A DNA stretch of 64,000 bases from Bdellovibrionales bacterium (GCA_965203275.1 OZ241865.1:1984001-2048000); one strand, 5' to 3'; counted from the first letter of the stretch, positions 13,296-59,990 are shown. Numbers and translations: made by a program. The notes: generated from the sequence alone by a model not told the origin.

Positions 13296-13628
13296 CCAGC
13301 TAACTTTTTGGTCATTGCCCAAAAACATGTTGCAGTCAAAAGGTGTAAGAAGGAACTGTTTCCTTAACATGGTGTTTATCCGGGTTCCGGGATCTGGGAT
13401 ATGGGATCCGGCAACCGGCATCAGGCAGACAGGCAGGGATGAAGCGAATATCTTGTTTCCTTAACATGGTGTTAAAAAATGAGGAGATCCTCCCTACTCA
13501 AAATAAATAGATTTTCTAGGCAGTTAGCCTTTGATCGACGGCGGTAGCCGTCGGGCTAACTGCCAGAAAACATGCCAGAGGCATGATTTATTTTGAGTGA
13601 ACCAAACGGCTAGTTTACTTTTAGTGAA
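13296..13628 (+). repeat. Structured repeat cluster: family B GGATCC cassette plus full family A copy (13456-13601)
   Basis: TTCCTTAACATGGTGTT end motif twice; nested stems ACTCAAAATAAAT/ATTTATTTTGAGT, GGCAGTTAGCC/GGCTAACTGCC, CGACGGC-GGTA-GCCGTCG, CATGCC-AGA-GGCATG. Confidence 0.9.
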
Positions 13629-13665
13629 AAAGAATCGCTTGCTATAGAGGAGTAAATCCTATAAT

Positions 13666-15798
13666 ATGACTTCCCTTATGATGAAAAAATATTTTTTATG
13701 TTTATTTTTTGTAGTCAGTGTAGTTAATGTTTGTAAGGCATTTGCCTTCCCACAAGAAGACTGCCCTGGCGTTTTACTTACCACTTTGGATAAAGATCAT
13801 CAAAGGTTCAGAGAGCTTTCACCAGAAGCTCAAAACATGCTCCAGATAGCTTCGATCATTGCTCAAGTGACACATAGCAATGACTCTATACCAGTAAAAG
13901 TGAATATTTATCATGTCCTACTTGCAACTTTAACAAAAATCCAATCAGCCAATGAGGCCATCTATCGTTTAAATTTAGTGGATATAGCTGGTGGTGATGA
14001 AAGTAAAAGTGCATTATTTGTTGTTTTAAAGAATTTAGGGATTTTAAGAGATTTTCAAAAATTTCTTTTAGAAGAAATAGGTTTAAATAGTAGCAACCCA
14101 GAGCCTTTTGAATTCCAGTTAGATAGATCGCTTCTTCTCAATCTGAATGAAGCTGTATTGACATCGACAAAAATTAACTATGATAAAGAAGTTGATCGCT
14201 TATGGAATTTAGCCATTCGTGAGAAAGAAGAAGAGATCAGGTACATAAATAGTAAGAATAAAAAAAGTCGATATAATAAGACTTTTCGGATTTACACTTT
14301 TCCAGAACATTTCTTTTTAGCGTCCTTAAGTGTTGATTCGTCCCTTTCTCATTTTCTATTAGAGTATTTTAATGGTAAGACACCAGCTCAGATCAAAGAT
14401 ACACTCTATCCATTGATAGATCAAGCTAGGCGATTTCATTGGAGTTTTTCAAAAAAAAAGAGACGTAATTCTTATTCTAAAGAAGAAAAAGAAGTGGTCA
14501 TTCATTTAGTTATTGAAAGAGAGAAAGAGATAGAAGTTACCAAAGCCATTGCAGAAGTATCAGAGCAAACAGGTATTCCTGTCGGCAATTTGACACGTTG
14601 GTATTATAAATATAAAAGAGAGGCCATTGCTCTAGTTATTAAAAAAAAGAAAGAAATGGGACTTCTAAAAGCCATTGCAAAAGTATCAAAGCAAACAGGA
14701 ATTTCTGCCGGCACTCTGACACGTTGGTTTTATTATGGAAATCACGAAGATGCTATCGCTCTAGTTATTGAAAGAGCGAAAGAGGTAGAAGTTATCAAAG
14801 CCATTGCAGAAGTATCAGAGCAAATAAAGATTCCTGCCACCACTCTGGAGTTTTGGTATTATAAATATAAAGAAGAGGTTATTGCTCTAGTTATTAAAAG
14901 AGAGAAAGAGATAGGAATTGAAAAAGCTATTTTAGAAGTATCAGAGCAAACAGGGATTCCTGTCGACACTCTGACCTATTGGTTTTATTATGAATATAAA
15001 GCAGAGGTCATTGATCTAGTTATTGAAAGAGCGAAAAAGATAGGAGTTACCAAAGCCATTGCAGAAGTAGCAGAGCAAACAGGTATTCCTGTCGACACTC
15101 TGACACGTTGGTTTTATTATAAACATCACAAAGAGGCTATTGCTCTAGTTATTAAGAAAAAGAAAGAGATAGGAGGATCATTTAATAAAGTCATTATAGA
15201 AGTAGCAAAGCAAATAAAGATTCATTATGCTAGTTTGCTGATTTGGTTTGGTGAATATAAAAGAGAGGCCATTGCTTTAGTTATTAAAAAAGAGAAAGAA
15301 ATGGGACTTCTAAAAGCCATTGCAGAAGTATCAAAGCAAACAGGTATTCCTGTCGACACTCTGACCTATTGGTTTTATTATGAATATAAAGCAGAGGTCA
15401 TTGATCTATTTATTGAAAGAGCGAAAAAGATAGGAGTTACCAAAGCCAATGCAGAAGTGTCAGGGCAAACAGGGATTCCTGTCGGCACTTTGAAACATTG
15501 GTATTATAAATATAAAAAAGAGGTTATTGCTCTAGTTATTGAAAGAGAGAAAGAGATAGGAATTGAAAAAGCTATTTTAGAAGTATCAGAGCAAACAGGG
15601 ATTCCTGCCGGCATTCTAACACGTTGGTTTTATTATGAACATTACGGAAAGACTATTGCTCTAGTTATTGAAAGAGAGAAAGAGATAGGAGTTACCAAAG
15701 CCATTGCAGAAGTATCAAAGCAAACAGGAATTCCTGTCGACACTCTAAGTGCGTGGTATTATGAATATAAAGCAGAAGCCATTGCTTTGTTTCACTAA
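13666..15798 (+). CDS. Signal-peptide protein with Clp-N-like domain and ten tandem HTH repeats; 3' end truncated by a family A element
   Basis: MMKKYFLCLFFVV...AFA leader; NIYHVLLATL and FPEHFFLASL motifs; ten 42-44 aa repeats like YKxEAIALVI...AIAEVSEQTGIPVDTLTRW. Confidence 0.85.
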   Translation: MTSLMMKKYFLCLFFVVSVVNVCKAFAFPQEDCPGVLLTTLDKDHQRFRELSPEAQNMLQIASIIAQVTHSNDSIPVKVNIYHVLLATLTKIQSANEAIYRLNLVDIAGGDESKSALFVVLKNLGILRDFQKFLLEEIGLNSSNPEPFEFQLDRSLLLNLNEAVLTSTKINYDKEVDRLWNLAIREKEEEIRYINSKNKKSRYNKTFRIYTFPEHFFLASLSVDSSLSHFLLEYFNGKTPAQIKDTLYPLIDQARRFHWSFSKKKRRNSYSKEEKEVVIHLVIEREKEIEVTKAIAEVSEQTGIPVGNLTRWYYKYKREAIALVIKKKKEMGLLKAIAKVSKQTGISAGTLTRWFYYGNHEDAIALVIERAKEVEVIKAIAEVSEQIKIPATTLEFWYYKYKEEVIALVIKREKEIGIEKAILEVSEQTGIPVDTLTYWFYYEYKAEVIDLVIERAKKIGVTKAIAEVAEQTGIPVDTLTRWFYYKHHKEAIALVIKKKKEIGGSFNKVIIEVAKQIKIHYASLLIWFGEYKREAIALVIKKEKEMGLLKAIAEVSKQTGIPVDTLTYWFYYEYKAEVIDLFIERAKKIGVTKANAEVSGQTGIPVGTLKHWYYKYKKEVIALVIEREKEIGIEKAILEVSEQTGIPAGILTRWFYYEHYGKTIALVIEREKEIGVTKAIAEVSKQTGIPVDTLSAWYYEYKAEAIALFH

Positions 15799-58348: not shown

Positions 58349-58494
58349 TTACAATGTCTACCCTTCTTTAGGATGACTTATCTATGATCATTCAATGAGC
58401 TTTCAGATAGTTCTTTATTAATTTATTGACCAAGGGTCTAATTTATTCATACAAAAATCAATAGTCAATAACAATATTATAATTGATGTAAGTA

Positions 58495-59990
58495 AAAAAG
58501 ACGGACTTTTGAGGTAGCCAGCCTTGATGAAGGAATTTTTCCTTAACATGTGGTCAAGAGACGAGAGGATCCTCCTCTACTAAAAGTAAACGGACTTTTG
58601 AGGGAGTTAGCCTTTGATCGACGGCGATAAGCCGTCGGGCTGGCTACCCAAAAGCAACCAGAGGCTGGTTTACTTTTAGTGAAACAGCTAGCTCCCTAAC
58701 CCCACCCCCCGCCCTTCGATTCTGCTTTTCCATTTGTATATTTTTTATGAGTGGAATGCGGAGTCAGGCTTCCGAAGTCCTCAATTTTTTTCACTCAAAA
58801 TGAACTGGCCTCTGGCCACTTTTGGGTAGCCAGCCCGACGGCTCTCGCCGTCGTAAAAGGCTGGCTACCTCAAAAGCTTGTTCATTTTGAGTAGGGCGAA
58901 TCTCCTTGCTTCTTACACCATGTTAAGGAAACAAGATATGCTTCTAAAATTTTTTGGGGAGCAAGCGGGTCTGCGGAAGATCTTCAGCCTGCCCCCGCCT
59001 CCCACTCATAATAATATTTATGTTTTTTTGAAAATTACGCAGAATCTAAAAAAGAATAAAAAAAACAAAAAAACGAACTCTTGTTTCCTTAACATGGTGT
59101 AAAGGAATAAGAGGATCCTCCTCTACTAAAAGTAAACGGACTTTTGAGGGAGTTAGCCTTTGATCGACGGCGATAAGCCGTCGGGCTAACTGCCCATTAC
59201 CATTCGCATCCAGATTTTTTATTTGTAAGCACAGAATTTCAAAGCCAAATGAGTAAAAAGTGATAAAAACTAATGATATAAATGGGAAAGAGTCTGGTCT
59301 CAGGGCAATGATTTTGAAATTTAAGAAATAAATTGAAGATCCAGCTCAAAAGTAGCCAGGGGCTAGTTCAATTTTAGGGAAACAAAGGCATGATGCATTT
59401 TGAGTGAAAATGACGGTCAGTTTACTTTTAGTGAAACAGCTAGCTCCCTAACCCCACCCCCCGCCCTTCGATTCTGCTTTTCCATTTGTATATTTTTTAT
59501 GAGTGGAATGCGGAGTCAGGCTTCCGAAGTCCTCAATTTTTTTCACTCAAAATGAACTGGCCTCTGGCCACTTTTGGGTAGCCAGCCCGACGGCTCTCGC
59601 CGTCGTAAAAGGCTGGCTACCTCAAAAGCTTGTTCATTTTGAGTAGGGCGAATCTCCTTGCTTCTTACACCATGTTAAGGAAACAAGATATGCTTCTAAA
59701 ATTTTTTGGGGAGCAAGCGGGTCTGCGGAAGATCTTCAGCCTGCCCCCGCCTCCCACTCATAATATTCATGTTTATTTGAGATTTACGCAGAATCTAAAA
59801 GAGAATAAAAAAAAACAAAAAAATGAAACTCTTTTTCCCTAACATCCTGTTAAAAAACGGAAGGATCCTTTCTACTAAAAGTGGTCAGGCTTTCTAGGTT
59901 GCCAGCAACTGAGAAGGCGAAAGCCTTCGGCTGGCAACCAGAAAGTAGCCAGAGGCTAGACCACTTTTAGTGAAATGTTAAAGAAACAAA
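58495..59990. repeat. 1.5-kb block of family A and D elements with an internal duplication (period 752 bp)
   Basis: About 58669-59085 repeated at 59420-59840; complete A copies 58539-58683 and 59835-59974; inverted A copies inside both D hairpins. Confidence 0.92.

Follow-up and report, generated by a model that had tools for sequence, protein, structure and literature searches.

A polar, fold-conserving repeat with interchangeable stems in a Bdellovibrionales genome, and a four-helix-bundle gene as its candidate partner

Several described systems come close to family A, a structured repeat of about 140 bp that we describe here from a 64,000-nt stretch of a Bdellovibrionales bacterium (OZ241865.1:1984001-2048000, hereafter the window). 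Short interspersed nuclear elements (SINEs) and 5'-truncated copies of retroelements without long terminal repeats have a fixed 3' end with a short A-rich tail, a ragged 5' end, captured flanking DNA, microhomology at their joints and target deletions, and repeats akin to miniature inverted-repeat transposable elements (MITEs), namely ERIC, RUP, Correia and RPE, are like family A in size, abundance, strong folding and location between genes or at gene ends. Repetitive extragenic palindromes (REPs), including BIMEs and REPINs, occur as hundreds of intergenic palindromes in mosaic clusters, with tandem arrays that include flanking DNA, closeness to stop codons and no target duplication, according to PMC3116915 and PMC3733652. 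IS91 and ISCR elements have two unlike ends, capture adjacent DNA through the leaky one and make no duplication (PMC13181058). A different line of work concerns four-helix-bundle proteins: those of PF05635 are homologous to Avd (PMC10053308), Avd is a pentamer that grips a stem-loop by flipped-out bases (10.1101/2023.10.23.563531), Xcc0516 is also a pentamer, and the idea that the open reading frame (ORF) of an rRNA insert serves mobility is an old one (both PMC4990558).

The window, part of a 2.57-Mb single-contig genome with a marker completeness of 90%, contains 38 matches to the head motif of family A with at most 2 mismatches, against 0.28 expected, and 22 well-formed copies of 139-146 bp, counted from head to GTGA, between 13457 and 59973. 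A 23rd listed copy at 55805-55931 was dropped as a mis-parsed remnant. The clusters number 14 and add up to 8,189 bp, or 12.8% of the window, in agreement with an earlier note on this DNA which had described an abundant ~140-bp element in about 15 clusters covering about a tenth of it; the P1 alleles quoted there are all in place (its position 13456 being our 13457). Genome-wide there are 704 full copies, 617 of them distinct, and 476 clusters, which make up 10.0% of the genome, passengers counted in. Since contig depth is ~100-fold higher on clusters than on unique DNA in four sequencing runs from three studies (one of the runs may be the source sample), this abundance is no assembly artefact. 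Rfam matched only two tRNAs in the window and gave three chance-level matches on four loci, none for family A above the gathering score, so that the Rfam check that the earlier note proposed left the element without a match. A literature search, largely of openly accessible papers, found no description of family A. We conclude that family A is a real repeat and a fold-conserving, non-autonomous structured unit.

Each unit consists of a head conserved in sequence, a short purine/pyrimidine hairpin and a three-way junction, here called the Y. In the Y, P1 has 13 bp, P2 has 6 bp, a bulged A, 10-11 bp, an asymmetric pyrimidine loop, 6-7 bp and a G..A tip (GNNA), and P3 has 5-6 bp with a purine triloop, which is AGA in 842 of 858 genome-wide matches. 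The fold has a z of about -8 to -11. Among the 704 copies the two arms are perfectly complementary in 80% for P1, 72% for the P2 body and 94% for P3, as compared to 14%, 8% and 17% when arms are shuffled among copies. In 35 copies from this genome and a congener, 33 of 43 pairs show change on both sides, and none of 500 shuffles reached as high. The information shared by paired distant arms (0.74 for P1, 0.84 for the P2 body, 0.90 for P3) exceeds that of neighbouring unpaired segments (0.3-0.6), which served as a control for shared descent. The covariation for which a test had been proposed is thus present in all three stems, although part of it may come from the copying mechanism itself, through arm-from-arm correction or mosaic exchange, and not from selection.

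Alternative perfect stem alleles are found on otherwise identical backgrounds (14 backgrounds for P1, 16 for the body, 19 for the tip and 23 for P3), and the four-gamete rule fails for a minority of allele quartets. This indicates that stems are exchanged as units. The claim that both arms of every stem change together holds for most copies but not for all, with chimeric copies at 17744, 47191 and 58539 in the window.

Mismatches within the Y, counted over allele types on the reader's strand, are G.T in 79 cases and A.C in 38 (19 versus 4 in the congener), and this excess suggests that the Y folds on the + strand. The head gives the opposite picture over copies, with 1184 A.C against 378 G.T, so the proposal that mismatches define the folded strand is correct for the Y part and fails for the head. 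A minus-strand fold of the head was considered and is weakened by the composition of the outer head stem, which is mostly a purine tract in which the folded strand is not fixable from mismatches. In the same way, the suggestion that structure and not sequence is recognised agrees with the conserved shape of the stems but not with the head, whose conserved sequence implies that recognition is not by structure alone. Nearly all stem pairs are Watson-Crick, and among 565 four-base G..A tips there are 192 that read GNYA rather than GNRA. GNYA-type loops and purine triloops are stable in DNA. Because of these nearly pure stems and GNYA tips, and because no reverse transcriptase (RT) was found, we tentatively regard single-stranded DNA as a likelier intermediate than RNA.

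Family A is a polar unit. The right end is fixed and consists of GTGA followed by 2-9 variable, A-rich bases beyond P1, while the left end is ragged, joined by microhomology, and often takes in upstream DNA. The fold drawn in the earlier note stands, but its head-to-GTGA limits do not, since the unit also includes the 2-9 nt tail and a ragged leader. At boundaries with unique DNA, 184 of 205 right ends are at the tail end, as against 19 of 55 left ends at the head, the others falling inside the element. Repeated DNA stops within 9 nt past GTGA in 88 of 446 resolved copies; on the other side, just 28 of 286 have it stop no further than 30 nt upstream of the head. Among identical family A sequences, 34 of 55 have different 3' flanks, and the view that the unit is mobile is borne out.

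Paired nested insertions (n=28) lost 5-19 bp of host DNA in 17 cases and 35-66 bp in 6, with overlap in 5; empty paralogues, of which about 8 of 23 candidate pairs were informative, show blunt joins, 10-19 bp losses or short overlaps. Tail joints, read by eye, have 0-3 nt of homology. No constant target-site duplication was found in empty paralogues and nested cases, which show deletion, blunt or variable overlap; a dedicated test of isolated copies had 3 usable. No empty-site joint was seen among the joints listed from contigs of sequencing runs, and the best 10-nt end-to-end match that could represent terminal inverted repeats is 7-8/10, barely above shuffles. Both this genome and the congener have tandem units in which one element is combined with 40-90 bp of host DNA from its upstream side (congener loci L141, with eight tandem units of 235 bp, and L164). 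In these units the bases after GTGA are supplied by the element and not by the target, and in L141, L164 and pair 345 the target lacks them. The A/C-rich bases after GTGA were accordingly rejected as a target word. There is no fixed target word, the commonest four bases after GTGA accounting for 22 of 96. Purine-specific mutagenesis of re-copied flank was also rejected, since the differences in locus L165 match the congener's gene and have a balanced spectrum. Tails are followed by DNA of the system in 696 of 1188 cases against its 38% share in non-coding DNA, a modest excess that led us to reject strong self-targeting.

At 99 joints a tail meets one exact point of an antisense head, and in 524 of 704 copies the base of the second head hairpin carries, on the minus strand, the motif GTAG, whose position is internal with an overlap into P1. 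Both would be expected of one-ended rolling-circle or REP-like transposition by a lost or too divergent HUH enzyme, in which the tail would be the origin, the head hairpin a leaky minus-strand terminator and the four-helix-bundle gene discussed below a passenger only. Family A resembles IS91 in combining a fixed end with a leaky one and in capturing adjacent DNA, its head reads G.T on the minus strand, and PMC13181058 and PMC3116915 describe, respectively, co-mobilisation of adjacent DNA by IS91 without target duplication and tandem arrays with flank for REPINs. HUH strand transfer differs, however, from a tail that varies over 2-9 nt, has no fixed target word and joins targets that lose bases; the Y folds on the + strand; and the 99 joints comprise mostly three related alleles that may be amplified founders. 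With no Y1 enzyme found here, and no family A beside the congener's only Y1, which is an IS200-like gene with its own ends, we regard this scenario as quite unlikely.

The earlier note had seen no mobilising enzyme in the window, and we found no known mobiliser in the whole genome either, in profile searches of this 90% complete assembly that were controlled by matches elsewhere. Profiles for Y1/RAYT/IS200 (PF01797) and the IS110 recombinase (PF02371) were blank with controls found in 6 of 14 each, that for RT (PF00078) was blank with its control found in 3 of 14, and PF02486 (Rep_trans) and Ku (PF02735) were blank with controls found. The IS91/Rep_1 profiles PF04986, PF14319 and PF01446 were blank, but their controls were silent too. 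All PF07282 matches lie within a frame of 1365 codons. Twelve ORFs carry RT- or HUH-like motifs, among them 10 housekeeping genes and 2 that match no family; Pfam scans covered 33 window ORFs, these 12 candidates and a few more, of ~1,500-2,100 ORFs. Two tyrosine recombinases, a Xer-like protein and a gene that is single-copy in 51 of 61 relatives, both fall far below the integron cut-off. The second of these, at the window's edge (63789-64000; L122:1417-1980), is a protein of 187 aa with a catalytic domain only. SbcD was not found in this genome; it is present in the congener, which has family A, and loss of SbcD was dropped as a general cause.

The search for an RT bears on a second alternative, a SINE-like retroelement. 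Here a + strand RNA, its 3' end trimmed to a few bases past P1, would be copied from a target 3' end either by an RT acting in trans (lost, unassembled or too divergent) or by a host polymerase, with an Avd-like ring as RNA chaperone, the role that it has in diversity-generating retroelements. Such an element would give a fixed right end, 5' truncation, upstream capture and left microhomology, and the polarity data fit this; 3' exoribonucleases stall 6-9 nt before stems, and L1 copies are 5'-truncated. The G.T excess and G..A loops on the + strand, the cis link to an Avd-like gene under purifying selection, and the presence in the congener of a group II intron RT and a retron-type RT also agree with it. 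Against this, no RT was found in this genome, including by tblastn with the two congener RTs, and no intact one in genomes G004, G021 or G031, where the four-helix-bundle gene is multicopy; G.U pairs are few for an RNA, one third of the tips are not GNRA, and family A has no preference for the sense of neighbouring genes. We consider a SINE-like origin unlikely.

Passengers lie 5' of family A in the same sense and comprise heptamer runs (family B), family C hairpins and the four-helix-bundle gene. The 101-aa product of this gene scores 58.8 bits against TIGR02436 (cut-off 24), and its predicted structure (pLDDT 92) has 2GSC and 2RLD, the Xcc0516/BT_0352 fold, as top matches, which places it in the four-helix-bundle (S23p/IVP, Avd-like) family. 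This genome has 32 matches to the gene, 10 of full length (one interrupted), and the 10 full paralogues show a pN/pS of 0.051 over 60 codons. In 21 of 22 ends a sense head follows 52-106 nt past the 3' end of the gene, via a heptamer run, and a sense head also comes after family C in 80 of 93 cases. Other families, namely the IS256-like, IS1634-like, serine-resolvase-like and Rpn ones, are multicopy as well but have no strict 3' link to family A (the first three labels are our own reading of the sequences, and Rpn was confirmed separately). No recurring enzyme neighbour of four-helix-bundle genes was found in 143 loci. Thus the enzyme gene that the earlier note hoped to find linked to the element did not appear as any known mobiliser, but the four-helix-bundle gene, of which the window has a fragment at 25178-25234, is a candidate partner. 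No four-helix-bundle gene tied to dispersed structured repeats was found in the literature searched, largely openly accessible papers, and no mention of the protein was seen in PMC4679880.

Further features of these passengers were observed. Family C is an irregular rod hairpin of 190-230 nt with covarying stems and a sequence-conserved internal loop; it has 73 starts genome-wide, no Rfam match, and copies in the window at 24808-25030 (+), 58693-59080 and 59445-59830 as well as in congener-type loci L165 and L174. Four-helix-bundle genes stand head-to-head, 70-150 bp apart, around a palindrome covering the ribosome-binding site (RBS) in L015, L016, L021, L036, L037 and L039 (genomes G035, G031, G025 and G026). 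Their cassettes stop 64-145 nt past the last codon at an antisense tRNA 3' end in L019, L020, L023, L024, L040 and L132, and 8 of 9 tRNA calls downstream of such cassettes are antisense. At L011:1795-1885 (-) the RBS and start codon of a four-helix-bundle gene lie inside a long hairpin whose folding energy exceeds that of shuffles by little (z -1.7); the genome has 23 such leaders. Two more repeated spacer families, in the window at 21610-21900 and in the 36064-35850 region, travel with family A, one after tails (at 21605) and one before heads.

Family A is closely placed with respect to genes. Of 175 genes directed towards a tail, 87 have it between -30 and +20 nt from their stop codon, against 7 of 94 for heads, and 29 ORFs end inside an element, many of them, by our own reading of the sequences, complete housekeeping proteins. 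Tails stop a median of 108 nt short of start codons. Stop codons in all three frames at the antisense end were looked for and are not present. Priming from tRNA 3' ends was considered for the 3 of 38 tRNA/tmRNA calls near tails by script (4 by eye; 0.23 expected); since 4 calls have a tail next to their 5' end as well and the ends of genes show no excess over their starts (160 versus 181), erosion explains this proximity equally well. In both species the cluster upstream of an S41 protease gene ends at nearly the same base (G000:C1:315100-315700 in this genome, and L170) with species-specific alleles, which speaks either for a cluster that has lasted long while its copies turned over or for one site that was used repeatedly. 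Congener loci L164 and L165 have tandem copies between two ribosomal-protein genes of the S10/spc region, a site that is empty here (G000:C1:2335600-2335655). Small multicopy coiled-coil genes (window 47769-48536 and 53767-56686) have upstream regions that are filled or empty for family A.

This placement raises a third alternative, in which family A is a domesticated structural element that stabilises mRNA, serves as a processing site or acts as an attenuator and owes its spread to gene conversion and unequal exchange, its covariation coming from arm-from-arm correction of near-palindromes. The crowding at stop codons and supply of stops to housekeeping genes, the shared junction at the protease gene in both species, the tandem arrays of identical units and the failure to find SbcD here would all be expected. 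It is difficult to reconcile with clean insertions at sites empty in paralogues, insertions into other repeats and genes, the differing 3' flanks of identical copies, the lack of orientation bias, an occurrence in only 3 of 151 genomes of the order, and the presence of SbcD in the congener that carries the repeat. We consider domestication improbable.

A covariance model detects family A in 3 of 61 relatives and 3 of 151 genomes of the order. In the third genome, G004, the matches are on three small contigs (C1, C4 and C11) that are closer to the congener than to the remainder of G004, with 86-89% identity at one locus, and these contigs may be mis-binned. There was no match in viral contigs, and a scan of genome collections returned at least 41 loci, all from one record among the matches listed. 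Among the genomes searched, family A is confined to one genus. The four-helix-bundle gene is present in 22 of 61 relatives and is multicopy in several. It is a mobile unit in its own right, and family A became its 3' neighbour in this species.

The best explanation for these observations is that family A is the 3' handle of a modular selfish system. As to mechanism, we tentatively favour a non-autonomous polar repeat whose copying passes through a folded single strand and relies on jumps of the polymerase, probably with a four-helix-bundle ring as chaperone. The + strand would be copied as a single strand, and folding of the Y would peel the new strand off its template, leaving only the short A-rich tail paired. 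The tail would then re-prime elsewhere with 0-3 nt of homology: downstream re-priming would cause an adjacent deletion, upstream re-priming a tandem duplication, and re-priming at another site a new copy, with the left side closed by microhomology. Forward jumps would eat away the flank until a stop codon, a promoter or a tRNA end is reached, and jumps between copies would swap stems. Host polymerases and recombination would supply the chemistry. Judged from its position and the selection on it, an Avd-like ring would be the likeliest helper; our guess is that a pentamer would grip the fold by its shape and by flipped-out bases and so promote jumps, and that the ring gene would be kept intact because it rides on the handle it serves.

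A number of points weigh against this mechanism, or against the part given to the ring. Avd is not among the listed fold matches of the protein, which has no recognised catalytic role. A sense head follows only 1 of 22 four-helix-bundle ends in the congener and 0 of 18 in G004, and in other genomes the gene has 6-24 matches while the loci searched there contain no family A, so the gene does not need family A, and their link here may be one of capture. Junction classes recur many times with the same linker, amplified from few founders, which means that composites were amplified and that independent events are far fewer than copies. In the congener the proximity of tails to stop codons shows the same trend without significance (12 of 55 versus 6 of 68, p 0.07), and closeness to stop codons is known for REPs as well (PMC3733652). 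No bias of family A to replichore or gene direction was found, and GC skew is weak. Finally, an HUH enzyme may be present after all, given the 90% completeness of the genome and the silent IS91/Rep_1 controls.

Individual clusters of the window illustrate the polar, composite arrangement. The first (13223-13633, +) has a truncated copy, a head with a heptamer run, the full copy 13457-13600 and the rest of an interrupted copy. Two clusters give stops to genes by their tail side: 15786-16302 (-), with stacked truncated copies, heptamers and the full copy 15889-16027, for ORF 13666-15798, and 17640-17914 (+), with a remainder of host and the full copy 17744-17886, whose P2 body is chimeric, for ORF 17901-18959 (-). 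The cluster after uvrC (21173-21772, +) contains heptamers, a truncated copy and the full copy 21463-21604. The next stretch, all on the + strand, runs from the family C passenger at 24808-25030, an irregular, extended hairpin that has an A-rich end and immediately precedes a family A head, through the full copy 25035-25176, whose tail is joined into a copy of the four-helix-bundle gene, to the last 18 codons and stop of this Avd-like gene (TIGR02436; 25178-25234), which is intact elsewhere in the genome. A heptamer run (family B) and leader at 25251-25341 connect its stop to the next head, and 25342-25835 has full copies 25342-25481 and 25564-25703 with host remainders, the last tail being 11 nt from the CCA end of tRNA 25843-25919 (-).

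Further along, the cluster 35126-36102 (-) contains full copies 35693-35834 and 35923-36064, heptamers and truncated copies, and it is followed by a back-to-back cluster (36596-37087) of 36599-36744 (-) and 36915-37056 (+), the latter nested in an older copy with ~14 bp of host lost. Full copies 38706-38846, 38862-39003 and 39370-39512 and three truncated ones make up 38682-39730 (+). At 41523-41850 (+) the full copy 41616-41754 interrupts a gene of the Rpn family (PD-(D/E)XK) immediately ahead of an internal RBS; the split gene spans 40930-42218, and the cut recurs at this position in several paralogues. An antitoxin may be encoded inside Rpn genes. A degenerate copy with an extra internal hairpin (42313-42506, -) and a head followed by heptamers with no Y part (44538-44627, -) come next. 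In 47173-47760 the tail of the antisense copy 47191-47334 is fused to a head that breaks off after TTAACAT, and there are full copies 47385-47526 and 47591-47733, the whole replacing ~15-19 bp that paralogues have; a remnant of the same kind of cluster lies upstream of a paralogous gene at 55799-55958. The last cluster, 58501-59976, has a 5'-truncated copy and full copies 58539-58682 (+), 58791-58930 (-), 59543-59682 (-) and 59835-59973 (+), and in it two family C copies are each interrupted by an identical antisense family A copy. Apart from these, the window encodes Cas9 (1047 aa), Cas1 and a probable Cas2 with an array of ~10 36-nt repeats (6534-11535), and the genome has expanded ankyrin (33) and Rpn (>40) families.

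If the proposed mechanism is correct, the large four-helix-bundle family, which includes the 23S rRNA intervening-sequence proteins and relatives of Avd, would gain a concrete substrate, for which hundreds of natural alleles already separate the fixed features (junction, bulged A, loops, head and tail) from free stem sequence. It would allow experiments on how mobility is achieved, with no known transposase, by four-helix-bundle genes, by their heptamer flanks and by orphan palindromic repeats. Family A would trim the genome to stop codons and promoters and could take DNA from its upstream side along, a property of use in engineering should the motor come to light. A wider generalisation, which we hold to be somewhat unlikely, is that four-helix-bundle rings drive bacterial mobile DNA without transposase or RT, the ring gripping the folded nascent strand by its shape while host polymerases jump templates, and that family A is a parasite turned handle that carried the ring gene, heptamers and hairpins through a tenth of the genome.

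In comparison with known systems, family A does not show the full defining features of BIME/REPIN, IS91 or SINE. It shares with REPs, BIMEs and REPINs the properties listed at the outset, but these are hairpins of 20-40 nt or inverted doublets while family A is a 140-nt three-way junction in which GTAG is internal and not terminal; no RAYT was found here, one end is fixed and one ragged, and targets are deleted. It is like IS91 and ISCR in its unlike ends, leaky-end capture and lack of duplication, and differs in that no Y2 transposase was found here (with silent controls), there is no tetranucleotide target, the fixed end is imprecise and target bases are lost. The SINE pattern of ends is present without an RT or endonuclease partner found here or a regular duplication, and with near-perfect Watson-Crick stems. 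With diversity-generating retroelements it disagrees in the lack of any RT match here and in substitutions of re-copied flank that are balanced transitions, with no adenine-specific mutagenesis, and with attC sites and integrons in having no integron integrase match (the two tyrosine recombinases being far below cut-off) and no orientation bias. Unlike MITE-like repeats, it has no terminal inverted repeat or constant duplication, is polar, and has interchangeable stems. The S23p/Avd systems, as described in PMC4990558, PMC10053308 and 10.1101/2023.10.23.563531, have in common with it the four-helix-bundle partner gene, the heptamer flanks and the RBS hairpin; they differ in that no RT or template repeat was found here, family A is far more numerous than the gene (704 versus 10 full copies), and the gene in this genome is multicopy and lies outside rRNA.

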